Positions 2,760 through 53,029 of a stretch of 64,000 nucleotides of DNA are shown piece after piece. The stretch comes from Escherichia phage vB_EcoM-ZQ1. Position numbers and translations under genes: made by a program. The notes below the pieces were generated by a model, which did no database searches, was not told the origin of the DNA, and saw only the letters and a list, made by a program, of their open reading frames with translations. The first letter of the stretch is position 1, and each line of letters starts with the position of its first letter. The stretch lies in sequence record MW650886.1. One strand, written 5' to 3'.

Positions 2760-3065
2760 TTAGTCTTTGTCGGCAGACTTGCCAAAGAAGAATTCGAAAC
2801 CGTCATGGACAGCAACGACTTCCTGACCTTGGGAGATACCGTGAGTCTGGTCTGGGGTCAGCTTCACCTTGATGGTGTTGCCATCGGTTAACTCCAGGTT
2901 GTAGACATCCGCCTGATTGTCAGGAGTGATCTGGGTCACGGTAGCGCCGGAACACCACTGAGTGCCATCAGCTTGTTTGGTGATGGATACGGTCTTACCC
3001 TGGACACCAGCATGGGTCTGAGGTTTAGCGGCTTGTTCTTTAAAATATTCGATAAACGGTTTCAT
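2760..3065 (-). CDS. hypothetical late protein (101 aa)
   Basis: ORF preceded by canonical T4 late promoter TATAAATA. Confidence 0.5.
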   Translation of the reverse strand: MKPFIEYFKEQAAKPQTHAGVQGKTVSITKQADGTQWCSGATVTQITPDNQADVYNLELTDGNTIKVKLTPDQTHGISQGQEVVAVHDGFEFFFGKSADKD

Positions 3066-3089
3066 CTTAATCTCCTCGGGGATTTAAGT

Positions 3090-3097
3090 TATTTATA
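3090..3097 (-). promoter_or_regulatory. T4-type late promoter TATAAATA
   Basis: exact TATAAATA on minus strand ~25 bp upstream of ATG 3065. Confidence 0.55.
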
Positions 3098-3114
3098 AGC
3101 CCCCGAAGGGGCTT
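3097..3114 (-). terminator. stem-loop terminator
   Basis: aagcccc-gaa-ggggctt hairpin just downstream of gene 3122..6412. Confidence 0.5.
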
Positions 3115-3121
3115 TTGATGA

Positions 3122-9036: not shown

Positions 9037-11382
9037 TCAATCCTTCTTGATAACTTCAGTCAGGCCGTTTCGCAGGCCGTAGCGAATGTTGTGTTGGAAG
9101 TATTCCTGGAACTCCTGTTCGCGCTGGCTAATAACAAACAGGTTGTTCCCGCCGAACTTATGCTTCAACATCTCAACCGATTCCTGCACCCCGCGCTCGC
9201 TCATGTTCTCAAGGATCTCGTCCAGCACGAACAGGTTACATTGTACAGACGCCTTGAGGTTAGCCACATCGCGCAGAGCTAATGTCACAGCCAGGTTCAG
9301 ACGACTGCGCTGGCCAGTAGACAGGGAGAAGATACTCTGTCCTTTGCGGCCTGCTGCGCTCATGGTGATCTCAAAGGTATCGTCAACAACGATGTCCAGG
9401 AACATGTTGAGGGCTTCAAGATACTCGTTGATCTTGCTATTGAGGAATGGCAGATACAGGGCGATGATACGCGCCTTGGTCTGGTCATCTTTCAAGAAGA
9501 ACAGCAGGTGCTGTAAGTCCTGGAGTTCTTGGTCGGCATCCTCGCGGCGCTGGTATAGATCCTCCAGTTCACCTTCCAACGCAGCGATGGAGTTCTCCAG
9601 GTCGGTGGTAGGTGTTGGCTTTACAGCCAGTTTACGCTCCAGATCGGCAATAGACGCCACGAGAGGAGCACGACGGGCTTTCAGCTCGGCGATCTTATCA
9701 TCGACGGCTTTAATCCCGCTAACGGCATTCTCTCGCGTCTGTTGCAGCGACGCAGTGATGTCTTCAAAACGAACGTTCATTGCCTTACGGATGTCAAGGA
9801 TCTTCTGTTGGCATTCACGGTTCAGCGAATTACACTCAATCGTGGCGACATCATGAAAACCTTGAATATCACGGCGCAGCTGCTTGATGTTGTCAACGAT
9901 TTCGTCGGCCTGCTTGCGCATTGCATCAAGTTCAGCATCCAACACAGCAATGTCAGCAACCAGCTTGTCGTCCTGGGCTTTGTGGTCATCGATCAACACA
10001 GTGACTTCGGCGGTGACTTTATCCAGCTGGTCCAGCTTCGCCTGTAGATCCTGAATCCGAGGATTGTACTCGCTTTCAATGCGCGCCTTGGTATCGTCGG
10101 ACACCAGTTGGGTACATGTTGGGCAAGTCCCCATGTCGTGGAAGCGCTTGATGGCCGACTGATGCCCCTCCATTTCAGTCTGGAACTTGATACGGAAGTT
10201 CTCACCCTGCTGGCGGCGCTGAATAGCAGCGTTCAGGGTGTCCAGGTTTGTGTTGCGCTTGGTGAGCAGGGTGTTCTTGCGTTCGGCCACTGTAAAGGCG
10301 CGGTCACGCAAGACCTGAAGTTCATGCTCCGCAGTAGACACTTCGATGCGCTCATAATCATCGGCCTTTTCCTGAGCGGCATCCTTCACCGCCTGGATCT
10401 TGGCATCAAAGTCTTTCTTGACAGCCTCGATCTCTACCATGGATTCATCATGCAGGCGGCTTTCCACCGTCTTCATTTCCTGGGTGGCTTCAAACTCCAC
10501 AGCCGTGAGGCGGGTGCGCTCCTCATTCTGCGCGGCAATGTCAGCATCCAGGGAATTCAGGGCTTCCTGTTGCTGTACAAGGATATCGGCCGACTGCTGT
10601 TGGATCAGGGCGTTGGATTGCTCGATCTGCTGAAGCTGCGTCTTCTTGTTGGTGTGGTCAACAACCTTCAGTGCGCATTCGTTAGATATAGAGTCCAGAG
10701 TTGCATTTGTCCTTTTGATGGCGGCCTTGACATCTTCGTTCATCAGGCTGAAGAAGCCCAAGTCCCAGATAGTCTCCACCATGGCGCGGCGGTCGGCTGT
10801 GTACATCTCCGTGAACGGAATGAACTTCTCTTTACCCAACACCAGAGAGTTCTCAAACATCTTCTGGTCTACACCGATGAGGTTCACGATGTACTTGTTC
10901 ATGTCGGCTTTGGCTGCTTCGTTATCGATCTGCAACCACTTGCCGTCCACCATCTGGTAGACTTCAACAAAGTCAGGTTTAATGCCACGGCGAACCTTCC
11001 ATTCGCTACCACGGCAGGCAAACTCCACCTCACCCACACATTCCTTGCGGCTCTGTGAGTTAACCAGGCCTGCCTTCTTCTCCTTCTTGCTGTATGTGTC
11101 GTTGTACAGTACGAAAAACAGCAGCCATACCAGCATCGTGGATTTACCCGCGCCGTTGTCATCAGACGTGACAAGGGTGGCCGGGTTGCGCTGATAATCA
11201 ATCTCCATGAACTGATTGCCGATGGAGCGGAAGTTCTTGGCGCGGCCTTTGCGGAAGGTCAGTTTGTGTGTAACAACGTTACGCACTTCAAATGGGACTT
11301 CAACCTCGACCGGGGCGTCGGCTTCCTTCAAAAGATTACCAAATTTGGTCAAGATATCTGTGCTCTGAGTCATGTTATGCAT
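9037..11382 (-). CDS. 46: recombination endonuclease ATPase subunit, gp46 / SbcC-Rad50-like
   Basis: Walker A GAGKST at N-terminus, coiled-coil middle, LSTGQRSR signature and D-E Walker B at C-terminus. Confidence 0.8.
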   Translation of the reverse strand: MHNMTQSTDILTKFGNLLKEADAPVEVEVPFEVRNVVTHKLTFRKGRAKNFRSIGNQFMEIDYQRNPATLVTSDDNGAGKSTMLVWLLFFVLYNDTYSKKEKKAGLVNSQSRKECVGEVEFACRGSEWKVRRGIKPDFVEVYQMVDGKWLQIDNEAAKADMNKYIVNLIGVDQKMFENSLVLGKEKFIPFTEMYTADRRAMVETIWDLGFFSLMNEDVKAAIKRTNATLDSISNECALKVVDHTNKKTQLQQIEQSNALIQQQSADILVQQQEALNSLDADIAAQNEERTRLTAVEFEATQEMKTVESRLHDESMVEIEAVKKDFDAKIQAVKDAAQEKADDYERIEVSTAEHELQVLRDRAFTVAERKNTLLTKRNTNLDTLNAAIQRRQQGENFRIKFQTEMEGHQSAIKRFHDMGTCPTCTQLVSDDTKARIESEYNPRIQDLQAKLDQLDKVTAEVTVLIDDHKAQDDKLVADIAVLDAELDAMRKQADEIVDNIKQLRRDIQGFHDVATIECNSLNRECQQKILDIRKAMNVRFEDITASLQQTRENAVSGIKAVDDKIAELKARRAPLVASIADLERKLAVKPTPTTDLENSIAALEGELEDLYQRREDADQELQDLQHLLFFLKDDQTKARIIALYLPFLNSKINEYLEALNMFLDIVVDDTFEITMSAAGRKGQSIFSLSTGQRSRLNLAVTLALRDVANLKASVQCNLFVLDEILENMSERGVQESVEMLKHKFGGNNLFVISQREQEFQEYFQHNIRYGLRNGLTEVIKKD

Positions 11383-39644: not shown

Positions 39645-39926
39645 TTAGAACAAATGCTCGCCTTCCACATGGTATGCTAACACGCCGTCAGAACATTCAA
39701 AATACATGTTATCATATTCCCACAGAGCGGTGATTTCTTCACCCTGGCAAACCACCGAAAACTTCGGCTGGCTGGCCTTAACTGGAAATTTTTCAGGGGA
39801 AGAGATTGGGGTGAATTTGGCATTTCTGACGGCCATACCAACAAATTGCTGCAATGTTACTTTGTAACGAGAGTGGGTGATAGTGCCAGCATTCAGGGCT
39901 TCGATCAATTGCGCTTTAGTTGTCAT
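39645..39926 (-). CDS. hypothetical early protein (93 aa)
   Basis: conserved leader ...GGAACTATATC-ATG and early promoter. Confidence 0.5.
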   Translation of the reverse strand: MTTKAQLIEALNAGTITHSRYKVTLQQFVGMAVRNAKFTPISSPEKFPVKASQPKFSVVCQGEEITALWEYDNMYFECSDGVLAYHVEGEHLF

Positions 39927-39976
39927 GATATAGTTCCTTCATTTCAGAGTCAGTGTTGTGCTGCTTATGGAATGAA

Positions 39977-40009
39977 GTATACGGGGTTTATTGAAGAAGT
40001 AAACCCCGT
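39977..40009 (-). promoter_or_regulatory. T4-type early promoter within a 10-bp-stem hairpin (PeSL-like)
   Basis: TTTACT - 16 bp - TATACT; -35 lies in hairpin acggggttta / taaaccccgt. Confidence 0.5.
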
Positions 40010-40959: not shown

Positions 40960-41022
40960 GGTACAACCCTCGGATAGTAGACGGGGCAATAATACCTCTC
41001 GCCCCGTTATTGAAATGTTCTT

Positions 41023-42495
41023 TTAGTTCAAGACATATTTGATCAGTCCACAATTCCAAATCCTGACCAACCCGGCTTCGGTTGCTAACTGGCTTTCTGT
41101 TTTGCCTTCTACGTCATACCCCATGCGAGCAAATGAACCTTTTCTGAAACCGAATTTGTGCTCACGCATAAATGTGCCAGGCTTGTGATATTTGTAGTCT
41201 GGCTTCTGTACTTCCTCTTCTACGAATCCGTGGGATAGGTAAATGTTGGACAACCTGCTTACAACACACCTATCCCCAAAGGAATAGATTTTGGTGTCGG
41301 CAAATTTTCTTCTGAAGTGTGAAAGAAGTTTACTGAATGCCCCGTGGCAATCATTAGAGGCAAATCTGACTAATTCCAGGCCATCTTTCCTTTTAGTGAA
41401 TAGCATCACGGCTTGTATGACCTCACTCTTGTCAATTAACGACAAATGGTGGGTAGAAGAAACGGAACCTTGTATGTGGTGGTTGTCTAAAAACTCCCTC
41501 AAGCCGCTTATATTCCCCCAAACGACTTTGTGTTGGCGAGCATATGACGCAGGCGTTTTAATGCCAAGTTTAGCTTTCAGAAGAGATTTTACCACTTCCT
41601 GTTTCTCAACCCATTCATCTTCCCAGATGTGGACCAACTGGATACCCTGAGATTCACATATTTCAGTCTTTTCCAGGTGATAATGTTTCTCTTTAAAAAC
41701 TTCTGAATGCCAGTACAGGCCATTAAATTCAATCGCCAATTTGTGTTCAGGGCAATAGATATCCAGTTGTTTACCGGATAATATACTGTAATCAGAAACA
41801 GTGTTTACAACTCCCATTGAGGTGAGAAACTCGGATATTTCCTTTTCATAAGAAGATTTCTTGTTCCTGATAGAACCATTGCTGAACAACGCACGTTTTA
41901 GTATGTTCGAGTTTTTCATAGGGTTGTCAACACCATAACGTTCTTGTAACGTTGCCAACGCCTTCTCCCTCACACCAGGTAATTGTAGTGTGGAGCAGCT
42001 TCCGTATTTGGATATATTCGAAGTCTCTATGGCTTTCCGACCAATACCACCTTTACACATAGAAACCTGATAACATTCTTCAGAACAATATGTTCTGTAA
42101 TCTTTATTATTGATGTAAAAGTTGGTTTCCTTGGAACACACCGGGCATATTTTCACGGTTCTATTGTACATCCAAGCTGTGACTTTACAAGCCAAATCTT
42201 GTAGGGTGTTGTGGGCATTGGCGAACACTAAAAGGTCTACATTGATGTGCTTCATAAGCAGTTCAGATTTGCATTTTTGGATATCCAATTTGTTGTTCTT
42301 GGTAAACATATATTTGTAGAAAAATTGGCGATATGATTCCTCGTCAGACAATTCATTCACTGCTTCAAGGAAACCTTCCGGGAGGTTCTTTAGGGTGTTC
42401 GATGCGAAGGTCTTGCAAGCATCTGAACAAAATTTCTTATCTTTCCTGGATGCTTTGAACTGTTCATGGCAGACACTACAGATTACCTGATACAT
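41023..42495 (-). CDS. free-standing homing-endonuclease-like protein (Zn ribbons, YGV..PMK repeats, Vsr/DUF559-like nuclease domain)
   Basis: Cys clusters, repeated KYGVDNPMK-type modules, AIEFNGLYWH ... HIWEDEW C-terminal domain; paralog of 48475..50274. Confidence 0.6.
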   Translation of the reverse strand: MYQVICSVCHEQFKASRKDKKFCSDACKTFASNTLKNLPEGFLEAVNELSDEESYRQFFYKYMFTKNNKLDIQKCKSELLMKHINVDLLVFANAHNTLQDLACKVTAWMYNRTVKICPVCSKETNFYINNKDYRTYCSEECYQVSMCKGGIGRKAIETSNISKYGSCSTLQLPGVREKALATLQERYGVDNPMKNSNILKRALFSNGSIRNKKSSYEKEISEFLTSMGVVNTVSDYSILSGKQLDIYCPEHKLAIEFNGLYWHSEVFKEKHYHLEKTEICESQGIQLVHIWEDEWVEKQEVVKSLLKAKLGIKTPASYARQHKVVWGNISGLREFLDNHHIQGSVSSTHHLSLIDKSEVIQAVMLFTKRKDGLELVRFASNDCHGAFSKLLSHFRRKFADTKIYSFGDRCVVSRLSNIYLSHGFVEEEVQKPDYKYHKPGTFMREHKFGFRKGSFARMGYDVEGKTESQLATEAGLVRIWNCGLIKYVLN

Positions 42496-42556
42496 AATTA
42501 TTCTCCTCCATATGGTATCTAGTATAACCTGTTCGATAATATGAACAAATAAAAAC

Positions 42557-42572
42557 CCCGCCGAAGCGGGGT
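42557..42572 (-). terminator. stem-loop terminator (identical to 50768..50783)
   Basis: ccccgccgaagcgggg hairpin flanked by A/T tracts. Confidence 0.55.
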
Positions 42573-42600
42573 TTGTTTAGGGTTAAGGACAACTGTTCTA

Positions 42601-43932
42601 TTAGAACAGGCCTTTGATCAGCCCTTTACGGAAATATACGTTGGTGTCCTTGGCGATACCATCCGCAGTCACATAGACCTGTGGATCCTGGTTCGCTGGG
42701 ATCTGAACGAATGGGTTAGCACAAATCCCGTAGCGGGTCTTGAATGCCATACGTGGTGCGAAGGTGGTTTCACCCTGGGTGCGGTACATTTCCAGCGGTA
42801 CATACGGTGCGAAGAAGATACCAGCGTCCAGTGCGGTTGCGCCTTTGTATGCTAGGGTGATGTATTCTGCTACTGCATACGGGTCGATGTAGACACGCAT
42901 ACCGTTAGACAGCACACCAGCGAAGGTCTGACCAGTCGGATCAATCGCCAGCTTGGTGTTTTCCTGCAGCGCCGGAGCATAATCCAGCATGCCGGACATC
43001 GCCAGAGCGGATGCTACGTTCGGGGAGCACAGAACACGGTTGCCTTTACCACGACGGGTGTCAACACCGATGCCGTTCGCTTCAACTTCCAGCATGAAAG
43101 TCATGTACTTCCATTTTTCCAGCGCCCAACGACCGGAGATGTCAGTGGAGATGTCTACGATACCGTTGGTGCCGAATTTTTTGAAGCGTACTGCGCTGAA
43201 GTTCATGGTGCGGATAAACTCACGGTTCATCTCTGCCTGAATTTCAGTTACCATCACGTCGGACAGGATGCTGTCAACGTCTTCGCCGTGGATCGCCATC
43301 ATGTCCTGGCGCAGTTCGTGGCTGTAGTCAGCGTACAGGCCGCGAGACTTCGCAGTCACGGTTGCTTTCTGAACGGTGATACCAACACGTGCCCATGGGT
43401 TGGTGGTGGTGCCCAGCAGTTCAGCGTCGGAGGTTGACATGCCTTTACCGATGGTGGTGGTAGCAGCGCCGGAACCTTCGATTTCAGTCTGGGAGAAGCC
43501 AGATGGGTCGCCAGCCTGTGCAGTATCGTCACCGGAGTAACCGGAGTTGGCTTCGTTCATGAACAGCTCAGCGCGGGACTGGGCAGTGTTGGAGCCGTCT
43601 GCAACGCCCTGGCGAGCACGCAGTGCGAAGATCTGACCGTCAGGACCAGACAGCGGCTGAACGCCGAAGAAGTCCATCGCGATGTTGACCGGAGCCAGAC
43701 GTTTGGCCATGTCGATCAGGACTGGCTGCCATTTGCCCACAGAGGCGTTCACGGAGCCAGGAGCGTCGGATTCGCCCAGGTTTTTGGCGTTCCACTCAGC
43801 CTGGTTTTGCAGCAGACGGACGGCAACGTTTTCGGCAGAAAGCGGCTGGATGCTTTCAGATTCTTTCTGAAGAACTGGCAGCCACTGCTCGCGCATTTGT
43901 TCAGTAACAAGTTTCTTAGCCATGATGGTCAT
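42601..43932 (-). CDS. 23: major capsid protein, gp23-like
   Basis: 443-aa ORF at the end of portal-protease-scaffold-capsid T4-order module. Confidence 0.7.
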   Translation of the reverse strand: MTIMAKKLVTEQMREQWLPVLQKESESIQPLSAENVAVRLLQNQAEWNAKNLGESDAPGSVNASVGKWQPVLIDMAKRLAPVNIAMDFFGVQPLSGPDGQIFALRARQGVADGSNTAQSRAELFMNEANSGYSGDDTAQAGDPSGFSQTEIEGSGAATTTIGKGMSTSDAELLGTTTNPWARVGITVQKATVTAKSRGLYADYSHELRQDMMAIHGEDVDSILSDVMVTEIQAEMNREFIRTMNFSAVRFKKFGTNGIVDISTDISGRWALEKWKYMTFMLEVEANGIGVDTRRGKGNRVLCSPNVASALAMSGMLDYAPALQENTKLAIDPTGQTFAGVLSNGMRVYIDPYAVAEYITLAYKGATALDAGIFFAPYVPLEMYRTQGETTFAPRMAFKTRYGICANPFVQIPANQDPQVYVTADGIAKDTNVYFRKGLIKGLF

Positions 43933-44014
43933 TCCTTACATTGATATTCAGTTAAGTTGAAATTAATTAGTAGTTCAAAATCAAGCCCCCTTTCGAGGGC
44001 TGTGGCTGCTAAAA

Positions 44015-44866
44015 TTAGCCGTTGATGCCGAAGCGACGATTATAGTCGGCCAACTGACGCTTGATAGATTCTTTCAGCTCTTTGTCTGTTTCATCTTCAT
44101 CGTCATCTTCATCGCCTTCTTTCTTAGGCTTTTTGCCTTCGGCTTTAACATCTTTGTTGTCGTCATCGCCGTCTTTACCGCCGACTTTGTCCTGGAAGTC
44201 ATCGTCATCGTCATCGCCTTCTTTCTTCACGGACTTACCTTCTACCAGGTTGCGGAAGGTGTGTACGCGGGAAGCGAATTCGCTTTCGGTGGTGAACTGC
44301 ACAGCTTCCAGCAGATTGACAACCGTTGCTTTCTTGGTGTCGACCATACCTTCACAGACACGGGCGATCACAGAGTCACGCAGAGTCGCATTCGCGGCTT
44401 CTTTGATTTGACGGTTTTCGCTTTCGGCAATCGCAGCACGTCGTTCTGCTTCGGTCAGGCGGGCAGTCAGCGCAGCGATCTGGCCGTTTTCGTCGGTGGC
44501 AAAGTTGATACCAGCTTCTTTCAGAACACCAGTCAGGCCAGTCAGCAGATTTTCAGCCGCTTCACGTTTGATCTGAGCATCGATTGCAGGAGCGTTCTTG
44601 TTAGCCCACTCTTCTACAACAGCATTCAGGAAGCCATCGACTTTGGTCGCGATTTCCATCAAGTGAGACTCTTTCAGCTGAGCAATCTCAGCCTGATGAG
44701 CTTCAACCAGACGCAGGCGCTCAATGTTGGCAGCGTTTTCGGTTTCTTGAATAGCGGTCAGGCGAGCGGCTTCTACTTTAGATTCCAGCAGACCAGACAC
44801 TTTATCCAGGAAGTCGGTGCTGAGGCCGTTAACGCCCTCAAACAGTTTTTGCAATTCAGGTTTCAT
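44015..44866 (-). CDS. 22: prohead scaffold protein, gp22-like
   Basis: helical, highly acidic C-terminus; position between protease and capsid genes. Confidence 0.6.
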   Translation of the reverse strand: MKPELQKLFEGVNGLSTDFLDKVSGLLESKVEAARLTAIQETENAANIERLRLVEAHQAEIAQLKESHLMEIATKVDGFLNAVVEEWANKNAPAIDAQIKREAAENLLTGLTGVLKEAGINFATDENGQIAALTARLTEAERRAAIAESENRQIKEAANATLRDSVIARVCEGMVDTKKATVVNLLEAVQFTTESEFASRVHTFRNLVEGKSVKKEGDDDDDDFQDKVGGKDGDDDNKDVKAEGKKPKKEGDEDDDEDETDKELKESIKRQLADYNRRFGING

Positions 44867-44893
44867 GATTGTTTCCTTCTGAACGATTTTCAG

Positions 44894-44900
44894 TATTTAG
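44894..44900 (-). promoter_or_regulatory. late-promoter-like motif CTAAATA
   Basis: CACTAAATACTG ~26 bp upstream of scaffold ATG. Confidence 0.4.
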
Positions 44901-44911
44901 TGAGGCTGAAT

Positions 44912-45580
44912 TCAGCCCAGATGTTTCAATGCGATATCGAGGCGGCGCAGGAAGTCGTCTTCTAACTGAATATTGGTTTTCACCAATGAATCGACCACAT
45001 GCCCCTTAATGTCCTTAGGAACCCAAATTCCTGAAGATTCATCAAGCTGCCATTCCACAGATTCGCTCACAGCCTTTACATAACAAACTTGTCCAGAAGG
45101 ACGGTCGACTGCATCAACAGCAGTGAGCATAAAGCCGGGTTGAACGTCATCATAGCCGTTCACTGACTTGGTCTCACCAAGGCCACGTGTAGACACGGCC
45201 AGGTTGAAGTCTGCTTCAGCCAGAGCACGAATGATCTGACCTTTCGGTGTATTCAGGATCCGCGCTCGACCGATAGCGTTGGTGCCTTCCCAGCGCAAAG
45301 ATTCGGTTTTGAGTGCAGCGTGTTCGATATCGGGGAAAGGATAATCCGGATGCTTGAGTTCACCGATTGCACGACGATCCTGGATATACTCTTTGTCGTA
45401 TGCTTCGACAGCAGGGATACCCACCTTTTGGAGATCGTAGTTGCGACCATTACGGTTCACCTGGTTACACATCACGAATGGACCTTCGATGTACATGGCT
45501 TTGCCGCCAGTAGCCGTGGCCGCTTCACCAATCTGAAGGTCTTTCCCTATCGCAGTGATCTCACGCAACAGTTTCATCAT
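44912..45580 (-). CDS. 21: prohead protease, gp21-like
   Basis: VNRNGRNY matches T4 gp21 KNRNGRVY; size 222 aa. Confidence 0.75.
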   Translation of the reverse strand: MMKLLREITAIGKDLQIGEAATATGGKAMYIEGPFVMCNQVNRNGRNYDLQKVGIPAVEAYDKEYIQDRRAIGELKHPDYPFPDIEHAALKTESLRWEGTNAIGRARILNTPKGQIIRALAEADFNLAVSTRGLGETKSVNGYDDVQPGFMLTAVDAVDRPSGQVCYVKAVSESVEWQLDESSGIWVPKDIKGHVVDSLVKTNIQLEDDFLRRLDIALKHLG

Positions 45581-45587
45581 TCGCTCC

Positions 45588-45893
45588 TTAACTCAGTCCC
45601 ATCATACGACGGAACTTCATTGCTTTTTTCTTACGACGCTCGATTTTGCGTTGGTATCCCATACCCATGCGTTTCTTGGCTCGGATCGCCTTGCGGTTGC
45701 CCAGCTTGCGGGTACGGCGCTCACTGGCAACCATCACCTCACAACGGGAACCATCCGCAGACAGTTTGAAACCAGGAGCACACTGCAGACGGCGACGGCG
45801 TTTGCCTTTTGCGTTCACCTTGTCAATGACTTTCTGCTCATCCATGCGGGAAGCCAGGAAATCAGCGAACGTTGCAACTTCTTCGATTTCCAT
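45588..45893 (-). CDS. basic prohead-core-like small protein
   Basis: Arg/Lys-rich 101-aa protein between portal and protease genes. Confidence 0.45.
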   Translation of the reverse strand: MEIEEVATFADFLASRMDEQKVIDKVNAKGKRRRRLQCAPGFKLSADGSRCEVMVASERRTRKLGNRKAIRAKKRMGMGYQRKIERRKKKAMKFRRMMGLS

Positions 45894-45905
45894 GATACAT
45901 TCCTC

Positions 45906-46082
45906 TTACTGGTCGTCGCCGAAAGGTCCCATGTCTTGGCTCAGGGAGTTCAAGACATATTCAGTACCCTGCTGGACCAGTTCTTGGGCGCGAGCGGACA
46001 ACTCCATTTCGCATTCAGCAGCAGCGGCATCAGTATCACCAGCGATGATTGCTTTTACCAGATCGATAGCAGCCATGTTCAT
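45906..46082 (-). CDS. small acidic prohead-core-like protein (58 aa)
   Basis: internal ATG with GAGGAT RBS; position as T4 gene 67. Confidence 0.35.
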   Translation of the reverse strand: MNMAAIDLVKAIIAGDTDAAAAECEMELSARAQELVQQGTEYVLNSLSQDMGPFGDDQ

Positions 46083-46113
46083 ATCCTCTAAATGTTTTCT
46101 ATACTTAGTCGAA

Positions 46114-47808
46114 CTATTCTTCACCACCAGGAGGGTTAGTCGCTGGGATGACGTTAGGTCTGAATTTCAGTGGACTGACTTCCCCGCTGCCGAAGCCGCC
46201 GGACTCATCTGCCTGCACTTCAGGGTATTTGCCTTCTTTCTTCTCTTTCGCGATCTTCTCTTGCTGGTCTTTGATGTCTTCATCGGACATACGCAGCAAA
46301 TTGCGTTGAGCAAAATCGATAGAGAAGAGAGTGCCGATATATGGTTCGATCTGACCGAGAGCCGCCATACGCTGTGACAAGATTTCGTTCTCTTGTTGTT
46401 CACGGATGAAGCTGTCAGAAGTGAATTCGAACTTGACGAACGGCTTGATCTTCTCATTCCAGTCAGCCTGATCTGTAATGCCTTTCAATATCAGTTGACG
46501 GCGCAGAAGTTCCAGGAATATACCAGAAGAATAACGACGGCGCAGGCTCGCACAGAACTTGTTGAAGCGCAGTTCTTCCTGTGTGATTTCAGCAAGATTG
46601 GAACCACCGATGTTGATGGAACCTTCCTCTTGCAGGCGGCTCTTAGGGATCATCAGAGCCTCGTAGAGCTTCTCGCGGAAGTATACCACATGATCCATTT
46701 GACCCAGTTGATCGCCACCGCCTACGTTGGAGATCTCGGTTGCGTTCTGCCCTTCGCGACGTGGTAACCAGTAGTCCTCAGCGATACCCATCAAATGAGT
46801 GTTACCAGCCACCTTACCAGTGGTGCGATCATACGCCAGACGGTTCTTGAATTTGCCCATCATGGCTTGCATGTATTCTTCGGCCGACTTCTTACCCAGC
46901 GTACCCACGTCGAGATAGAACGCTCGCTTCTCAGGAGCACGTGTGATCGCATAGATCACTGTTGCATCTTCAGTTGTAACAAGGTTGTTCAGGGGACGGA
47001 TAGCTGGGTTCAGCAGGCTTGGTACAACCCCATTCGCCAGAGGCTCTTCACCACTGTCCAGATACACTATGCTCTCATCATCAAACACCAGCTCTTGCTG
47101 TGACGGTTGGAAGTTCTGAGACGTACCGGACTGGCCAGTGAATTGGTTGCGGTTGTAGTTCGGGTTGTAGTAGTATTGAAGTTTTACGTCATTGATGACT
47201 TCGATACCGTCGCGCATCGCCTTTTGAACGATGTATACAGGACGGATACAGCGTGAGTCCATCATGATGAGTTTGGCGATACCCGCTTTCTTGTTCTTCG
47301 GGTCCACTACAACGTGGAATGCCTGACGGCCTTCAATATACCATTTGCGGATCTTCTGATACGCTGTGTTGTCAAAGTCAAGGAGATGCATGATCTCTTT
47401 GAATGCGTCAGTGATCTTCTCTTTGACTTCGTCTGTGATGCCATCTACCTTTTCCAGGTTGATGGTTACAGGAGTCTCTTCCTCTTCACAAGTGACGACG
47501 TCGTTGACAATGATATCCACAGCCTTACGAATCTCAGGCTGCTGAGCCATAGACTGGTACTCTTCGACCAGCTGTTTGACGTTGAGCAACTCATTCTCAA
47601 CACCAACGAAATTGAATGTGTTCGCGCCGCCCTGGAGGATGATGGAACCATCCTGAGAATCGTCCAGCGCAACAACAGTCGCTTTTGAAAGCAACTTCTC
47701 TTCTTGGTTCGTGACCATCTTGTCGGTATCAATCGGCGCTTCTACTTTGCCGCCTCTACCGAACAGGCCGAAGAACCCATTTCCGAATGCACCATTACCG
47801 AATGCCAT
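46114..47808 (-). CDS. 20: portal protein, gp20-like
   Basis: 564-aa ORF in T4-order position. Confidence 0.65.
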   Translation of the reverse strand: MAFGNGAFGNGFFGLFGRGGKVEAPIDTDKMVTNQEEKLLSKATVVALDDSQDGSIILQGGANTFNFVGVENELLNVKQLVEEYQSMAQQPEIRKAVDIIVNDVVTCEEEETPVTINLEKVDGITDEVKEKITDAFKEIMHLLDFDNTAYQKIRKWYIEGRQAFHVVVDPKNKKAGIAKLIMMDSRCIRPVYIVQKAMRDGIEVINDVKLQYYYNPNYNRNQFTGQSGTSQNFQPSQQELVFDDESIVYLDSGEEPLANGVVPSLLNPAIRPLNNLVTTEDATVIYAITRAPEKRAFYLDVGTLGKKSAEEYMQAMMGKFKNRLAYDRTTGKVAGNTHLMGIAEDYWLPRREGQNATEISNVGGGDQLGQMDHVVYFREKLYEALMIPKSRLQEEGSINIGGSNLAEITQEELRFNKFCASLRRRYSSGIFLELLRRQLILKGITDQADWNEKIKPFVKFEFTSDSFIREQQENEILSQRMAALGQIEPYIGTLFSIDFAQRNLLRMSDEDIKDQQEKIAKEKKEGKYPEVQADESGGFGSGEVSPLKFRPNVIPATNPPGGEE

Positions 47809-47842
47809 GATTAAGTCCTCAACATTTTCTTGTAATTAGTGA

Positions 47843-47861
47843 GGGGGAATAAAGATCCCCC
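47843..47861 (-). terminator. stem-loop terminator
   Basis: ggggga-ataaaga-tccccc hairpin after tail tube gene. Confidence 0.45.
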
Positions 47862-47874
47862 AGCACTGAGGACA

Positions 47875-48408
47875 TTAGAGAGACTTGTCTGAAATGGCCT
47901 GGAAGTAACGCAGGTCAACAGTGAACTGAGTATAAGAGTCCATTGCAGACATGTCCAGTTCCAGCTGACCGAGGTTCTGAGGCCAGGTGCCCTGAAGGGT
48001 CCAGGTCTTGGTGACGTTGTCATTCGCATCCAGCAGTTCCATGATTACATCACGGAAATAATCATCTGGGTTAGCAGACGCACGGTTGTTGTTGCTACCG
48101 TTGATATACTGCTGCCAGACTTCGAATGCGTTGTACGGGGCGTTGTCCACGACGTTGATGAACGTCACAGGCAGAGCCTCGAAGCGGCGGTCACCTGGGA
48201 ATGGAAGTTCACGACCACCCCATGGGACGAGTATTTCCCCGAGCTGGCCTGTTGGGGTATTTGTGGTCACTGCCAACAGCGAAACATCACGGATAGTATC
48301 GCTTCCAGCCACGAAGGAAGGGAAGTTAACAGTCACACGCCAACGGTGTTGGCGCTGAACGCCGCCCCCGCGTGACATAGCTGCTCTGAATTCATTAACT
48401 GTAGCCAT
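47875..48408 (-). CDS. 19: tail tube protein, gp19-like
   Basis: 177 aa; C-terminal TWPQNLGQLELD resembles T4 gp19 LWPTNVGELQLD. Confidence 0.7.
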   Translation of the reverse strand: MATVNEFRAAMSRGGGVQRQHRWRVTVNFPSFVAGSDTIRDVSLLAVTTNTPTGQLGEILVPWGGRELPFPGDRRFEALPVTFINVVDNAPYNAFEVWQQYINGSNNNRASANPDDYFRDVIMELLDANDNVTKTWTLQGTWPQNLGQLELDMSAMDSYTQFTVDLRYFQAISDKSL

Positions 48409-48430
48409 GGTCGTTCTCCTCTGAATAGTG

Positions 48431-48441
48431 TAAATATTTAG
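48431..48441. promoter_or_regulatory. palindromic late-promoter-like element TAAATATTTA (bidirectional)
   Basis: reads CTAAATA on minus strand toward tube gene and GTAAATA on plus strand toward the endonuclease gene. Confidence 0.4.
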
Positions 48442-48474
48442 TTTTGAAATAAATGGGGGTTAAAATACTCCAAA

Positions 48475-50274
48475 GTGAGGATATTTATTATGCCATTCCC
48501 CGATAAAAATTGTTCATGCTGCCACAAACCGTTCACCCCAACCAGGAAGGCTGCGTTGTATTGTAGTGACGAATGTAAATCATTCATGCTGGGAACGATG
48601 AAACGCAATCCGAGTTTGTTGGATAACATCCCGACGACCGAAACCGAATGCCGCTCTTGGGTTGATAGTAAACTCAGGAAGAAAGATGGTTCGTTGAACT
48701 ACAAACTTATCTCTCATCCCCTACTCACGGCCCATACTGGGGTTGATGTTGTTGGATACGTGGTGTCACACAACGACCTATTAGAAGAACCACAAGCGAT
48801 AACTGCTTGGCTGTACGATATTCCGAAGTCGCAGTGTGTCACTTGCGGTGCTGACGTTGGCTTAGAAATGGAAGCCCAACCACCCAGATACAAAAAGTTT
48901 TGTTCCGAAGAATGTCAACGAGAATCGATGAAGGCGGGAGGCTCAGAACGGACCAACCTAGAAAGCGCCATATCAGAGAAATATGGCGTTTCTAGCACAT
49001 TCCAGCTGGAAGAAGTAAAACAAAAGTCACGGGAAACTGTCCTTAAGAAATATGGGGTCGACCACCCTATGAAGTCTGATGTTATAAAGGACAGAGTGGC
49101 TGCTTCCGTCATGGAACGCTATGGCGTATCACACGTCATGAAAATGCCAGAAGTGAGGGAAAGGGTGATTGAGACTTGGAGGAAGATCTATGGTGTGGAT
49201 CATCCAATGTTCCTCAATTCCATTATAGAAAAGAGAAAGAAAACATGCGTCTTAAAATATGGGGTTGATTATCCGTTGAAGGTAAAGGCTATATGGGATA
49301 GAAGCCAGGTCAATACCAGGATCATTTCAAAAGAAAAATACGGCGTACCTCACTATTTCTCTTCTGAAGAATATAGGAACTCTTTCACGTACCCCAGCAG
49401 CCAAAGCCAAACACAGCCAGAAATAGAAATATGTTCATATCTGGAGTCATTGGGCGTTATATGCGAATCTGGTAATTTCTCCATCCTCAGAGGTAAAATG
49501 TTCGACGGAAGGGTGACCACACGCCAGATAGACATATACTGCCCAGAACATAAGTTGGCAATAGAATTTAACGGCTTGTACTGGCATACAGAGAAACATC
49601 GATACAAAGACTACCATCTTGAAAAGACCATGTACTGTGAAGCCCAGGGTGTTCAATTAATCCATATCTGGGAAGATGAGTGGCGTGACAAACGGGAAGT
49701 GGTTAAATCACTCCTTAAAGCAAAATTGGGGATAGGGAAACCATTGTCATACGCTCGCCAACATACCATTTTAGAAGGCTCCTATAGGACGTCCAAGGAC
49801 TTTCTCGACCGATTCCATATACAAGGTGGTGTGGTGGCGACAGATTATATACACCTTGTAGACAAAACTGGGAATATCCAGGCGGTGATGTTGTTTACCA
49901 AACGAGTGCATGGTATTGAATTGGTGAGATTTGCTTCTAACAATTGTCATGGCGCATTCTCACGCTTGCTGAAATATTATATCGCTCGACATCGGGGTGA
50001 GACAGTATATTCTTTTGGTGATCGTTGTGTTGTCAGTCGTCTGAAAAATGTTTACCTGAATAACGGATTTGTTGAAAAGGAAATCCTTCCCCCTGATTAC
50101 AAATATGTGACTCCGGACTATGGCTCACGTATACACAAATTCAATTTCAGGAAAGAGAAATTCCTTAAACTTGGATACGATGTAGAAGGTAAAACAGAGG
50201 ATATGCTGGCGATAGAAGCCGGGTTGGGGCGTATCTGGGGGTGTGGTCTTATCCGGTATGAACTGGAAAACTAA
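48475..50274 (+). CDS. free-standing homing-endonuclease-like protein (paralog of 41023..42495)
   Basis: plus-strand gene inside minus-strand tail module; same Zn-ribbon, YGV..PMK repeat and Vsr/DUF559-like domain. Confidence 0.65.
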   Translation: MRIFIMPFPDKNCSCCHKPFTPTRKAALYCSDECKSFMLGTMKRNPSLLDNIPTTETECRSWVDSKLRKKDGSLNYKLISHPLLTAHTGVDVVGYVVSHNDLLEEPQAITAWLYDIPKSQCVTCGADVGLEMEAQPPRYKKFCSEECQRESMKAGGSERTNLESAISEKYGVSSTFQLEEVKQKSRETVLKKYGVDHPMKSDVIKDRVAASVMERYGVSHVMKMPEVRERVIETWRKIYGVDHPMFLNSIIEKRKKTCVLKYGVDYPLKVKAIWDRSQVNTRIISKEKYGVPHYFSSEEYRNSFTYPSSQSQTQPEIEICSYLESLGVICESGNFSILRGKMFDGRVTTRQIDIYCPEHKLAIEFNGLYWHTEKHRYKDYHLEKTMYCEAQGVQLIHIWEDEWRDKREVVKSLLKAKLGIGKPLSYARQHTILEGSYRTSKDFLDRFHIQGGVVATDYIHLVDKTGNIQAVMLFTKRVHGIELVRFASNNCHGAFSRLLKYYIARHRGETVYSFGDRCVVSRLKNVYLNNGFVEKEILPPDYKYVTPDYGSRIHKFNFRKEKFLKLGYDVEGKTEDMLAIEAGLGRIWGCGLIRYELEN

Positions 50275-50276
50275 AA

Positions 50277-50292
50277 CCCCGCCTCAGCGGGG
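50277..50292. terminator. bidirectional stem-loop terminator
   Basis: ccccgcctcagcgggg hairpin between convergent genes. Confidence 0.5.
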
Positions 50293-50299
50293 TAAACTA

Positions 50300-50656
50300 C
50301 TATTTGCGAATGCTAACCTGAGCATAATACACATAATAATCACCGTGGGCACGGAAGCTGGTGAGGTGGAAGGTGACGAGGTGGCTCCCGAAAGCTACAA
50401 CTTTGGTATCTGGGGAGCATAAATCATTAGCTAGTTCACCCAGAACCTTACCACAAAACTCCCCAACAATAGCGTTAAATCTGTCAATGTGTGGACTGGT
50501 CACCGTCATTGGACCAACATCTGCACAGTAGATCCCTTTTATCATCTTTCCCTGGCTGTCGCGTACTGGCTTTGCAGGCTGGTAAGGATTGATGCGGCGT
50601 TTCAGGTTACAGAGGCCGATTTCTTTCAGGATAGCGTTAATTTCGGTCTTGGTCAT
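50300..50656 (-). CDS. hypothetical early protein (118 aa)
   Basis: conserved leader ...GGAACTATATC-ATG and early promoter. Confidence 0.5.
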   Translation of the reverse strand: MTKTEINAILKEIGLCNLKRRINPYQPAKPVRDSQGKMIKGIYCADVGPMTVTSPHIDRFNAIVGEFCGKVLGELANDLCSPDTKVVAFGSHLVTFHLTSFRAHGDYYVYYAQVSIRK

Positions 50657-50704
50657 GATATAGTTCCTTCGTTTCAAGTTGGTGTCGTACTGCTTATGTT
50701 TAGA

Positions 50705-50733
50705 ATTATACGTGAGTTATTGAAGAAGTAAAG
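50705..50733 (-). promoter_or_regulatory. T4-type early promoter (-35 TTTACT, -10 TATAAT)
   Basis: TTTACT - 16 bp - TATAAT. Confidence 0.5.
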
Positions 50734-50767
50734 TAATTCAATAAAATAATCTGGGAAAAATTTAAAA

Positions 50768-50788: not shown

Positions 50789-51091
50789 TTACACTTTGCT
50801 GTATTTCTTAAACAATTTACCGAGTTCACCTGGGGCTTCTCGAGTTCCAGCAGCTTTGCTAACAACCTGTTTATCTTTCTTCAGGTCGAATACTTTGATC
50901 TCTTTGCCATTATATGTATATTCAAAATCATCAATGGTTATGCGGAAGAAATCTCCAAATACTCCATTTTCGATATCACCCTTTTTGAGCCTTACATCTT
51001 GGTCTTCCAACCATTCAATCACGGAGTCTTTAACTTTCTGAAGGTCACCTTTTAGGCCTGCTTCTGCTAAAAATTGAGAAAAACTTTTCAT
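50789..51091 (-). CDS. hypothetical protein (100 aa)
   Basis: ORF with GAGG RBS directly after sheath terminator. Confidence 0.45.
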   Translation of the reverse strand: MKSFSQFLAEAGLKGDLQKVKDSVIEWLEDQDVRLKKGDIENGVFGDFFRITIDDFEYTYNGKEIKVFDLKKDKQVVSKAAGTREAPGELGKLFKKYSKV

Positions 51092-51133: not shown

Positions 51134-53029
51134 TTAAGAAGCGGCTACGATACCACCACCAGTTTCGATCTCGCTGAACTCCATGTCCGGACGTACCGCA
51201 GCAAAGTCCAGATACACCCAGTTGATGGAGTATTCTGGTTTCAGCCAGATACCCGCGACCATCTGGTTCGCAGCGATAACATCAGCGGTGTTGTTGTCCT
51301 CGTCACACTTCACCATCCCGTCATAGATCGCGCCCATGTTGGCCAACTGGCGGATATATGGGCGGACAGCGTTGCTGAACAACCCACGAGTGAATGCATC
51401 GTTGTTCTCACCAAGGTAGTATTTGGCGATGGCTGCGATGTTCTGTTCTGCCATAATGAACAGACCACGAACGTTGATGCGGTCGAACGCAGATGGGCGG
51501 GTCAGGCCAGTCTTGTCGCCGTACAACACGATGCCTTCGTTGGAGAAGGTGACGATGCTGTTGATCTGGTTGCGATACAGCACAGCACGCTCATCAGAAG
51601 ACGCAGACCACGCCATTCGATTATAGTTGTTGTATTTACCACGGTTGTGGAACGCTGGAGACTTGTAGATACCCGCGATTTCAATGCTTCGCGCCCAAAC
51701 ACCTGCGGTGCCGCCACAAGCCGGAATCCAACGCATTTTGTCGTTGTACTTGTCGTACACATACGCCCAGTTGTCATCCATGAAGAAGTAGGAGGAGTCG
51801 CGAACAAGGCTTTCACGCCAGGCCACAACATCATCCATCTCACGGCCACGGTTTCCGACGACCGTATCGCGAAGAGGAGACACGAAGGACACTGTGTCTT
51901 TACGCTCAGTGGACAGGTCGATCAGTGCCTGCTGCTCAATCAGTTCTTCACAGAAACCGAACACTGGCTTGGCATCATACGCTTCGGCGTTGTTCAGTGC
52001 CTGGATAGCCGCAACACGGTTCCCAGTGTAATCGTCTACACCACCTTCGAGTTCAATGACACCAGCAGCCAGGGTAGTGGCGAAGGTGTACACCCAATTT
52101 GAGGTGTCGTTGATCACGTCTTTGAAGTACGCATTGGATCCATCAGATTTCTTAGAACCCTGAGCGGTCTGCACCAGTTCATACTTCTCGATGATCGTAC
52201 CGGAAGCACCAACAGTGGTGACGGCAGCGGTAGCAGTCAGACCATTCGCGTCTGGAACAATCGCAGTCGCAGCCTGAGGACCGATTGCTTTGTGAGTGAC
52301 GGTGACGGTGTTGGACTTCACGACAACAGAAGAATACACTTCAGACAGGGACGTCAGCGCAGTTCCGATCTTTGTCGCCAGAGTCGCCGGGGTGTCAGCG
52401 TCAGTGTACGCCACGGCTTCACCAGCAACAGAGATGGAACCAGCAGCGGTGGCAGTACCGGATACAGAGATACGATCAACCTGGCTAACAGCACCAGAAG
52501 AGTCGGTGATGCGACCTACTTTGTCAACGATGGCGATATGGTACTCGCCATCCTGCGGAGCATATGCGAAGTTGTTACGGAATTCCCAGGTCGGGAACAG
52601 CGCAGCGTCACAGATGTTCACAGCAATGTCGTTACCCAGAGAGCCAGCATAGCGGCCTGTCCAGGTAATAGACGCAGATGGAGACGCAGTTTCGAAGTCT
52701 AATTTGTTGCGGATAAGGATTGCAGTCTGACCTTTGGTTACAGCGTTGCGTGCCGCCGGACCGACCACACGGGTCACCCATGCAACAGAGCTGTAAGACA
52801 GGAAGTCAGCAATCACTAAGAAGTCGGTGGCAGTTGCATCGTTTGGCTTGAAGAATTTCTTCACCAGACCAGTTTCGCCACCAGTGACCAACACAGGGAG
52901 TTCTGCTTCACCCCATTGGAATTTGCCGACAGTCGCACCCTGAACAACAACGGATGGAGACGTCTGAAGCGTGGCATCACGCTCAGTCCACTGTACGGAC
53001 GGCGCAACGCTGAAGCTTTGAGTTGCCAT
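51134..53029 (-). CDS. 18: tail sheath protein, gp18-like
   Basis: N-terminal GKFQWGEA matches T4 gp18 GKFQWGPA; 631 aa; start at internal ATG 53029. Confidence 0.8.
   Translation of the reverse strand: MATQSFSVAPSVQWTERDATLQTSPSVVVQGATVGKFQWGEAELPVLVTGGETGLVKKFFKPNDATATDFLVIADFLSYSSVAWVTRVVGPAARNAVTKGQTAILIRNKLDFETASPSASITWTGRYAGSLGNDIAVNICDAALFPTWEFRNNFAYAPQDGEYHIAIVDKVGRITDSSGAVSQVDRISVSGTATAAGSISVAGEAVAYTDADTPATLATKIGTALTSLSEVYSSVVVKSNTVTVTHKAIGPQAATAIVPDANGLTATAAVTTVGASGTIIEKYELVQTAQGSKKSDGSNAYFKDVINDTSNWVYTFATTLAAGVIELEGGVDDYTGNRVAAIQALNNAEAYDAKPVFGFCEELIEQQALIDLSTERKDTVSFVSPLRDTVVGNRGREMDDVVAWRESLVRDSSYFFMDDNWAYVYDKYNDKMRWIPACGGTAGVWARSIEIAGIYKSPAFHNRGKYNNYNRMAWSASSDERAVLYRNQINSIVTFSNEGIVLYGDKTGLTRPSAFDRINVRGLFIMAEQNIAAIAKYYLGENNDAFTRGLFSNAVRPYIRQLANMGAIYDGMVKCDEDNNTADVIAANQMVAGIWLKPEYSINWVYLDFAAVRPDMEFSEIETGGGIVAAS

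Follow-up and report, generated by a model that had tools for sequence, protein, structure and literature searches.

Two Hef-like, Vsr-type putative homing endonuclease genes at intergenic sites of the late structural operon of Escherichia phage vB_EcoM-ZQ1

Two genes of Escherichia phage vB_EcoM-ZQ1, a Vi1-like member of the Ackermannviridae (Aglimvirinae), are most probably selfish elements that code for functional, free-standing homing endonucleases of the Hef-like, Vsr-like 'EDxHD' kind, each settled in its own intergenic hot spot of the late structural operon. We put the probability of this reading at about 0.85. The two, here called gene A and gene B, lie in the window, that is, the whole stretch of 64,000 nucleotides of sequence record MW650886.1 that was analyzed. 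Homing endonuclease genes are known to abound in Vi1-like phages. As a finding, the pair is not new and belongs to routine annotation: orthologues of both genes, F-LimVII and F-LimVIII of Dickeya phage LIMEstone1, were named in 2012 as Hef-like free-standing homing endonucleases (Table 1 of Adriaenssens et al. 2012, PMC3296691). They occupy the same two sites in the same orientations (84.6% and 88.9% nucleotide identity to genes A and B; 491 and 596 aa), while the two small ORFs that separate gene B from gp18 in the window are missing in LIMEstone1.

Two paralogous genes and their domains

Gene A (41023..42495, minus strand) encodes 490 aa and is the orthologue of F-LimVII; gene B (48490..50274, plus strand) encodes 594 aa, is the orthologue of F-LimVIII and runs antisense to the structural operon. 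The mechanical ORF of gene B (48475-50274, plus) opens with a GTG at 48475. Its true start is most likely the ATG at 48490, judging from the presence of MPFPDKNCSCCH at the start of three of three orthologues and of a GAGG 9 nt upstream. Both proteins match PHROG 3339 ('homing endonuclease'; E=4.6e-155 for A, E=3.5e-191 for B), and genes annotated 'homing endonuclease' in phages RPN242 and PC3 are 99% identical to gene A and 98.6% identical to gene B, respectively.

The sequence-only reading had placed paralogous ORFs at 41023..42495 (minus) and 48475..50274 (plus), inverted and about 6 kb apart, with roughly 60-70% identity in their C-terminal parts. Both ORFs were found there, 5,979 bp apart in inverted orientation, and their proteins align by BLASTP with E=9e-150 and 42% identity overall. 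Identity rises from 32% in the N-terminal 150 aa and 40% in the repeat region to 65% in the nuclease, and amounts to 60, 62 and 65% over the last 180, 200 and 250 aa, in agreement with the earlier estimate. The AIEFNGLYWH...HIWEDEW motifs were found in both proteins, and there is no third copy of the endonuclease gene within the window.

Each protein begins with two CxxC...CxxxC clusters, as had been read from the letters (residues 6-27 and 117-141 in A, 13-34 and 121-147 in B). In gene A both were located by regular expression on the translation. The first (42415..42480, minus) has the form CxxC-x13-CxxxC with an FCS-type motif and is modelled as a helix preceded by short strands (E2-5 and E12-15); it may bind zinc. 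The second (42073..42147, minus) gives weak matches to the YacG zinc finger (Pfam E=0.0039, NCBIfam E=0.0013). The clusters are followed by helical repeats of the DUF7487 type, identified by Pfam and regular expression. Gene A has two (K/R)YG(V/S) repeats (aa 151-205; 41881..42045, minus) with cores at aa 163 and 186 and a DUF7487 match under the cutoff (E=4.6e-5), while gene B has five to six tandem KYGV repeats (48940..49386, plus) with a DUF7487 match of E=1.4e-24 (87.7 bits against a 27-bit cutoff). The tandem YGV(D/S)HPMK-type repeats reported earlier for both proteins are the same elements; the regular expression counts two cores in A and five in B, and a sixth, degenerate unit of B escapes it. 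The repeat region of gene B is a mosaic between alleles, with 51% amino acid identity to phage maane and a dS of 0.09 to LIMEstone1.

The Vsr-like (EDxHD-type) nuclease domain of gene A (aa 206-310; 41566..41880, minus) was delimited from a structure model and conserved residues, and that of gene B (49387..49728, plus) from its 65% identity to the modelled domain. The high-confidence model shows the Vsr/I-Bth0305I ('EDxHD') nuclease fold, and on this model the catalytic domain is a Vsr-type variant of the PD-(D/E)xK fold. The conserved residues in gene A are E217, D245, E256, N258, H263, H273, K276 and D293, and both window proteins carry the full set. Across 257 relatives, conservation is about 98% at each of D245, E256, H263, H273, K276 and D293 and 87% at E217. 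Eleven residues ahead of a conserved Gly, where I-Bth0305I has D222 and Vsr has D97, stands the invariant His H273 (98%), in a register set by sequence. By that register the last Asp of EDxHD corresponds to this His throughout the clade, so the chemistry may differ in detail from that of I-Bth0305I.

The nuclease of gene B gives sub-threshold Pfam matches to MTES_1575 and DUF559 and has 3r3p_A as its best PDB sequence match. The Pfam cutoffs of Vsr, DUF559 and MTES_1575 are reached by neither protein individually, NUMOD has no Pfam match in either, and in NCBIfam the Vsr and YacG matches are sub-threshold only. Of the Vsr/DUF559 PD-(D/E)xK resemblance put forward in the sequence-only reading, the Vsr-type fold is supported by the model, but the Vsr and DUF559 profile assignments stay below cutoff. 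I-Bth0305I (PDB 3R3P; E170, D196, H213, D222) is the prototype of EDxHD homing endonucleases, and Hef-type enzymes were assigned to the same Vsr-like family (Taylor et al. 2011). It is intron-encoded, with NUMOD-type N-terminal motifs and no GNAT domain, whereas genes A and B are free-standing and carry one.

By tblastn, the nuclease and C-terminal module match genes annotated as Hef or Hef-like in Campylobacter phage IBB_35, Tenacibaculum phage PTm5 and Salmonella phage SG1. This homology, together with the free-standing sites, the presence or absence in relatives and the replacement by other endonucleases described below, points to membership of the Hef-like class, the homology to the founder Hef of phage U5 resting on chains of annotation and on Taylor et al. 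2011.

Occupancy of the two sites and the gp19 tract

Gene A lies at site 1, immediately downstream of the major capsid gene gp23; gene B lies at site 2, between the tail sheath gene gp18 and the tail tube gene gp19. Among about 290 related records, 24 have a full-length gene A and 25 a full-length gene B. Elsewhere, site 1 is occupied by another Hef paralogue, by a GIY-YIG gene or by nothing, and site 2 by GIY-YIG genes, a remnant or nothing. Phages AG3 and RPN242 have common breakpoints at 48408/51107. Phage LHE287, a 98%-identical relative, has a decayed gene B with an internal deletion of 1.46 kb, and genomes at least 98% identical carry, between them, all combinations of occupants of the two sites. 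Since most relatives are without them, genes A and B are not core genes; the view that they are mobile, implied by the sequence-only reading, agrees with this sporadic distribution. At the two sites, endonuclease genes of several families compete for the same places between genes of a structural operon, and boundaries of genetic exchange between phages that are therapeutic candidates fall at these places.

A trace of homing was found next to gene B. The 5' end of gp19 (nt 1-177; 48232..48408, minus), delimited by identity pattern and diagnostic positions, shows 90-99% identity in every carrier of gene B and 78-82% in phages that lack the gene. The 18 diagnostic substitutions in gp19 are mostly silent (0 amino acid changes in kage or Marshall, 2 in AG3) and all fall within nt 21-177. 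The tract is common to all gene B carriers, which belong to three genera, and differs in non-carriers; it is a co-conversion tract and the homing footprint of gene B. In addition, the block of gene B and an adjoining small ORF is 90-97% identical to that of Kuttervirus phages maane and Mutine, against 70-85% in the flanks. Gene B has been transferred laterally between subfamilies, along with the first 130-180 nt or so of gp19. Most likely, then, its target lies in gp19 at about nt 1-130 or at the junction just upstream, and the tract offers a concrete, testable prediction of where an uncharacterized Hef-type enzyme cuts.

For gene A, no co-conversion tract was seen at the 3' end of gp23 in comparison with LIMEstone1 and AG3. 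Two signs suggest that it has moved recently: its presence or absence among relatives, and an identity at odds with that of its flanks (95.1% against 89.8% to pSal-SNUABM-02, 84.5% against 94.2% to CECAV_050). A simple origin of the window by recombination of two parents, joined at the boundary of gene A, was considered and rejected: in the SNP map, mismatches cluster at 42576-42644 and 43423-43605, giving a patchwork and no single clean crossover. The only claim about recombination made here is that genes A and B assort independently.

The mechanism proposed here starts when a phage with the gene and a relative without it infect the same cell. There, the protein would bind a long target through its zinc-ribbon-like N-terminal clusters and the KYGV helical repeats; the Vsr-like domain (in A, E217, D245, E256, N258, H263 and H273) would cut the naive genome near the empty site; and recombinational repair would then copy the endonuclease gene and adjacent donor DNA into the recipient.

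Comparable arrangements exist in T4-related phages. A T4-like coliphage has a Hef-like gene between gp23 and gp24, and in T4 segD sits next to gene 23. The T4 seg and mob genes are likewise intergenic endonuclease genes in conserved operons that spread by double-strand break repair with co-conversion of flanking markers, as for SegG; their catalytic domains are GIY-YIG or HNH, in contrast to the Vsr-like domain here. Hef of the T4-related phage U5 is reported to cleave the neighbouring conserved gene nrdB and to replace mobE (Sandegren et al. 2005). U5 resembles the present case in that a free-standing endonuclease gene replaces another one between conserved genes, and differs from it in phage family and target genes.

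The Mom-like domain and other readings of the genes

The last 180 residues of each protein have a GNAT fold, an under-appreciated feature that the sequence-only reading had missed. The Mom-like domain of gene A (aa 311-490; 41026..41565, minus) was recognized by fold and by the Mom-family profile, and that of gene B (49729..50271, plus), 60% identical to it, was included in the alignment (A2) used for the profile comparison. In profile-profile comparison by hhalign, the domain matches the Mom family with a probability of 95.7% (E=1e-8, 119 columns), while the match to the single Mu Mom sequence is weak (23%, E=9e-4). Some family members match Mom in Pfam (PF25680; P0127, 36.3 bits against a cutoff of 27.1); the window proteins individually are without a PF25680 match. 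Against PDB sequences the profile found only GCN5 acetyltransferases at E of about 0.02 and no Mom entry. A word-indexed search with the GNAT-like domain alone returned one near-identical fragment only, and an exhaustive profile search matched about 19,600 clusters at 50% identity. The domain is part of the conserved nuclease module, and the pairing of a Vsr-like nuclease with a Mom-like domain, with catalytic-type residues almost invariant, marks a very large family.

Mu Mom is a GNAT-fold protein that carries out Gly-tRNA-dependent N6-adenine DNA modification (PMC13219725, PMC7261163), with H58, Y59, R111, S124, D149, R151 and Y159 as key residues (PMC13219725). In gene A, H340, R377, S388, D408 and Y419 align in register with H58, R111, S124, D149 and Y159, and among the 257 relatives they are conserved at 100, 100, 85, 93 and 100%. 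Here Ile or Leu takes the place of Y59; at R151 both window proteins have Cys, and 56% of relatives have Arg. Mu Mom, of about 230 aa, stands alone, whereas the domain here is fused and its insert region does not align. The model has a helical insertion between the last strands, topologically where Mom has its HTH-like insert. For the role of the domain, DNA binding or dimerization, whether or not accompanied by catalysis, is the safest reading. A plain homing model has no need of the near-invariant Mom-type residues, and may therefore be incomplete.

It has to be considered whether the genes are instead restriction-modification-like fusions, in which the Mom-like domain modifies the phage's own adenines and the nuclease attacks unmodified DNA of host or competitor; they would then be conflict or exclusion systems instead of, or besides, homing elements. 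Mom-family GNAT domains fused to REase-fold nucleases, the same architecture, were described in jumbo phages and predicted to have such a role (Iyer et al. 2021, PMC7824862). Phage PA5oct has a 'putative homing endonuclease' whose structure matches that of the gene A protein over the full length, and one Pseudomonas phage of PA5oct size carries five copies, so that the Hef and Mom-REase literatures probably describe one family. The conservation of the Mom-type residues, and a constraint on the domain equal to that on the nuclease, point the same way. Against this, fixed sites, replacement by GIY-YIG genes, a decayed copy and a short co-conversion tract are unexpected of a general defence gene; R151, essential in Mu Mom, is Cys in both proteins; neither protein alone reaches the Pfam threshold for Mom; and modification by any nuclease-fused homologue was not found in the searchable literature. 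We consider this reading unlikely, the data on genes A and B being of the homing type. It is similarly doubtful that Hef-type enzymes including A and B are bifunctional, an active Mom-type pocket installing an N6-adenine mark at or near the enzyme's own recognition site. If they were, the modification, possibly Gly-tRNA-dependent as in Mu Mom, would be coupled to cleavage as self-immunity of the carrier genome or as licensing of the cut; the genes would be single-polypeptide, homing-capable restriction-modification elements; and two literatures that now treat one family differently would be united. The mechanism of Mom was solved only in 2026, so DNA modification by these 'homing endonucleases' has become directly testable.

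That the genes have lost their mobility, as inactive relics or as domesticated members of the core genome, is very improbable. Homing endonuclease genes commonly decay after fixation, as gene B has in LHE287, and gene A shows no co-conversion signal and has diverged from F-LimVII (84.6%) about as far as its flanks. Against decay, both reading frames are intact, every domain has a dN/dS of 0.08-0.12 (0.08-0.10 in gene A) and is under purifying selection, and the nuclease residues are all kept; against fixation, most relatives lack the genes, and nearly identical genomes differ freely in what they carry at the two sites.

The further suggestion that the genes, being homologous and inverted 5,979 bp apart, drive inversion of the capsid-portal-tube segment has next to nothing to recommend it: similarity at the DNA level is 73.5% over 234 nt and 69.7% over 99 nt, the longest exact match of 14 nt is below the 20-30 bp or so of perfect homology that efficient homologous recombination usually needs, and all compared Dickeya phage genomes with both genes are collinear with the window, the whole region lying on one strand. 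Module inversions are known in Campylobacter phage CP21, but they are bounded by near-identical extragenic repeat arrays and not by endonuclease genes, and this 'modular shuffling' was rejected as a precedent.

Terminators and a neighbouring reading frame

An intrinsic-terminator-like hairpin (42553..42574, minus; 9-bp stem with six GC pairs, T-run) lies in the gap that follows the gp23 stop codon (42601) and precedes the start of gene A; LIMEstone1 has an annotated terminator in the same position. As gene A sits behind this gp23 terminator, it is probably expressed at a low level. The exact T4 late-promoter octamer TATAAATA is absent near either gene, and a sigma-70-type scan gave no convincing promoter upstream of either. 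A second, GC-rich terminator-like hairpin (50276..50293) separates the 3' ends of gene B and a convergent small ORF, and LIMEstone1 and Mutine have terminators annotated at the equivalent place. The small ORF (50300..50677, minus; probable start ATG 50656, 118 aa) matches PHROG 13016, of unknown function. It is absent from LIMEstone1, AG3 and RPN242, and accompanies gene B in Kuttervirus phages, being 91-94% identical to its counterparts in maane and Mutine where the flanks are 70-85% identical.

Gene pair and genomic setting

Two open reading frames, gene A (41023–42495, minus strand, 490 aa) and gene B (48475–50274, plus strand, a mechanical ORF of 599 aa), were found where the sequence-only reading had placed a pair of free-standing endonuclease genes. 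Judged by their alignment, the two products are clear paralogues (BLASTP E=9e-150). Identity is 32% in the N-terminal 150 residues, 65% in the nuclease region, 60% in the last 180 residues and 62% in the last 200, in agreement with the 60–70% C-terminal identity claimed before. The architecture of Cys clusters and tandem repeats was likewise recovered: each protein has two CxxC...CxxxC clusters, and (K/R)YG(V/S) repeats number two in A and five to six in B. No third copy of this type was present within the 64-kb window. The start of gene B is probably better placed at ATG 48490, giving 594 aa, because three orthologues begin with MPFPDKNCSCCH and a GAGG lies 9 nt upstream of this codon.

The source phage is a member of the Ackermannviridae (Aglimvirinae). 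The window shares 97–98% identity with Escherichia phages LHE287, A221, PC3 and RPN242 and ~86% with Dickeya phage LIMEstone1. Along the minus strand, the gene order is gp18 (sheath, 53062–51134), gene B in antisense with two small ORFs, gp19 (tube, 48408–47875), gp20 (portal), a gp68-like gene, gp21, gp22, gp23 (capsid, 43932–42601), a strong minus-strand terminator hairpin (42574–42553) and gene A. In LIMEstone1 the positions downstream of gp23 (site 1) and between gp18 and gp19 (site 2) are occupied by F-LimVII and F-LimVIII, which were classed as "Hef-like" free-standing homing endonucleases (Adriaenssens et al. 2012, PMC3296691). Both proteins of the window match PHROG 3339 "homing endonuclease" (A, E=1e-155; B, E=1e-191), and the near-identical genes of RPN242 and PC3 carry the same annotation. 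The Hef endonuclease of phage U5 cuts nrdB. Genes A and B are already known in kind, as Hef-like free-standing homing endonuclease genes, and the core of the earlier interpretation was correct. The present analysis confirms the nuclease fold on a structural model, uses a co-conversion tract to place the probable gene B target, provides evidence for both sites as multi-family endonuclease hot spots, and documents a Mom-like domain in which residues of a catalytic type are conserved.

The further suggestion that the pair might mediate inversion of the capsid-portal-tube segment was not supported. DNA similarity between A and B amounts to 73.5% over 234 nt and 69.7% over 99 nt, the longest exact match is just 14 nt, and the Dickeya genomes with both genes, among those compared with the window, are all collinear. 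In phage CP21, the inverted segments have near-identical extragenic repeat arrays, rather than endonuclease genes, at their ends.

Nuclease and Mom-like domains

When searched singly, A and B each score under the cutoffs of Pfam MTES_1575, DUF559 and Vsr, and the best PDB sequence match of the nuclease was weak (3R3P, E=0.09). With 58 homologues as input, AlphaFold2 gave a confident model of A (mean pLDDT 93.6), and on this model the proposed Vsr/DUF559-like fold was confirmed. Among 257 relatives with the full nuclease and C-terminal module, D245, E256, H263, H273, K276 and D293 are each ~98% conserved, E217 is conserved in 87%, and N258 is Asn in 79%. The Vsr-like "EDxHD" family, of the I-Bth0305I type, includes phage Hef-type enzymes (Taylor et al. 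2011). In sequence alignment, E170, D196, E206, N208 and H213 of I-Bth0305I have counterparts among the conserved residues of A. In contrast, when the sequences are lined up without gaps on the conserved Gly that follows, the equivalent of its D222 would be the invariant H273, and the Hef-type clade of A and B would then read "EDxHH". By sequence register, the same position presumably corresponds to D97 of Vsr.

A search with a profile of the C-terminal domain (aa 311–490 of A) gathered ~19,600 clusters (50% identity), nearly always with the domain at the C-terminus of a protein of 450–700 aa. Pfam PF25680 "Mom protein family" matches family members, one of which exceeds the curated cutoff, a threshold that A or B alone did not reach. 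In profile-profile comparison the Mom-family alignment matched the domain with a probability of 95.7% (E=1e-8), and its structural match to a stand-alone phage Mom (E=4e-8) was better than that to any PDB acetyltransferase. Residues H58, R111, S124, D149 and Y159 of Mom lie in register with H340, R377, S388, D408 and Y419 of A, which are conserved in 100%, 100%, 85%, 93% and 100% of the 257 relatives, respectively. R111 and S124 were reported to be essential to Mom catalysis (PMC13219725). Mom R151, however, is replaced by Cys in both A and B, and is Arg in 56% of relatives.

Mom domains of jumbo phages fused to REase-fold nucleases have been read as restriction-modification-like (Iyer et al. 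2021, PMC7824862). Because a "putative homing endonuclease" of PA5oct matches gene A structurally over its full length, Hef-type homing endonucleases and Mom-REase fusions appear to be one family in two literatures; no paper linking Hef-type homing endonucleases with Mom was found in the literature searched. P0122, a distant family member of 880 aa, has a GIY-YIG nuclease domain at its N-terminus and a Mom-like domain at its C-terminus; therefore the Mom-like module is not exclusive to Vsr-like nucleases. Another protein, P0121 (233 aa, on a 49.6-kb public contig), matches gene A's Mom-like domain at 99% identity and may be a truncated gene A allele, reduced to the C-terminal domain and a portion of the nuclease domain.

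Occupancy of the two sites

Endonuclease-less alleles do exist in relatives (AG3, for example, at both sites), full-length gene A being found in only 24, and gene B in only 25, of ~290 related records. Site 1 holds gene A in the window, RPN242, LHE287 and LIMEstone1, another Hef-like paralogue of 621 aa in PC3 (locus 2759–4624), PH4, A221 and fGh-Ecl02, a GIY-YIG gene in Marshall, and small ORFs only in AG3, kage and Mutine. Site 2 holds gene B in the window, PC3, LIMEstone1, maane and Mutine, GIY-YIG genes in RPN242, kage and Marshall, a remnant of gene B in LHE287 and a 53 bp spacer in AG3. Every combination of occupants was observed among genomes at least 98% identical. Insertion boundaries coincide with mismatch clusters in a SNP map, and the breakpoints 48408/51107 are common to AG3 and RPN242. 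The 621-aa gene is common to gene A only over its 3' ~260–316 nt (~85% identity), which indicates that the paralogues recombine within the reading frame. Endonuclease genes seem to be drawn to the gp23-adjacent region in phages of different families.

In LHE287, which is 98–99% identical to the window, both ends of gene B are kept and 48701–50160 is missing. The first ~226 nt and last ~114 nt surround a clean 1.46-kb internal deletion (locus ~9886–10301), its junction marked by an 11-bp overlap, and these remnants are ~6% diverged vs ~1% elsewhere in the genome. The LHE287 locus represents the decay phase in the life cycle of a homing endonuclease gene. The record leaves the remnant unannotated, as 'intergenic' DNA.

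Other elements were seen in the same surroundings. In Escherichia phage RPN226, a Tequatrovirus, an antisense Hef-like gene of 503 aa, recorded as hypothetical, lies between the major capsid gene gp23 and the vertex gene gp24 (locus 2817–4328), the slot of segD in T4. The large terminase gene of Salmonella phage Marshall, just past gp18, contains an intein according to the record annotation (locus 9157–11163), a further selfish element of the same structural gene block.

Homing footprint and local exchange

Gene B and the adjacent small ORF (50300–50677, minus) are 90–97% identical to those of Kuttervirus maane and Mutine, of a different subfamily, whereas the flanks are 70–85% identical. Over the first ~200 nt of gp19, the gene B carriers maane, Mutine and LIMEstone1 are 90–99% identical to the window, and the non-carriers kage, Marshall and AG3, of the same genera, 78–82%; deeper in gp19 the two groups were indistinguishable. 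At the base level, 18 diagnostic positions all lie inside nt 21–177 of gp19, with no amino-acid change in kage and Marshall and two (S31A, S36A) in AG3. On this comparative pattern, the gp19 5' tract is a co-conversion tract of gene B, and from it the target of gene B is predicted to lie either in roughly nt 1–130 of gp19 or at the junction directly upstream of this gene. The gp19 allele of RPN242 and LHE287 is of the gene-B type, consistent with former occupancy by gene B. For gene A, no co-conversion tract was seen in comparison with LIMEstone1, but its identity to relatives is at odds with that of its flanks: gene A and the flanks are 95.1% vs 89.8% identical in pSal-SNUABM-02 and 84.5% vs 94.2% in CECAV_050.

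In most comparisons dN/dS was 0.08–0.12 in the zinc-cluster, nuclease and C-terminal domains; therefore both genes are maintained as functional. Within gene B, mosaicism is greatest in the KYGV/DUF7487 repeat block (48940–49386), which has only 51% amino-acid identity to maane but is nearly identical to LIMEstone1 (dS 0.09); the domains flanking it have the opposite pattern of likeness. This suggests exchange of putative DNA-recognition modules between gene B alleles.

A 100-aa ORF (50789–51091, minus) is shared by the window and LHE287 and absent from PC3, RPN242, LIMEstone1, AG3 and maane; it had zero Pfam or PHROG matches. Its presence tracks a cluster of 21–24 mismatches in the adjoining gp18 3' end (51150–51400; 0 in LHE287), as if it also moved with a co-conversion tract. 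A direct repeat of ~95 nt, 84% identical, lies at 39907–40005 and 50637–50735. Each copy spans the start codon (39926 and probably 50656) of a small minus-strand ORF together with the sequence upstream of it, and the second has a good sigma-70-like promoter, TTTACT-16-TATAAT, at 50732–50705. The repeat has the look of a common promoter and 5' cassette, such as have been proposed to underlie modular shuffling among T4-type phages. Immediately beside gene A, a 52-bp sequence is doubled around a 201-nt ORF in RPN242 (locus 2445–2496 and 2704–2755), PC3 and AG3. Because the window keeps a single copy (40968–41019) and is without the 201-nt ORF, comparison of these loci suggests that this ORF was lost by recombination between the short repeats.
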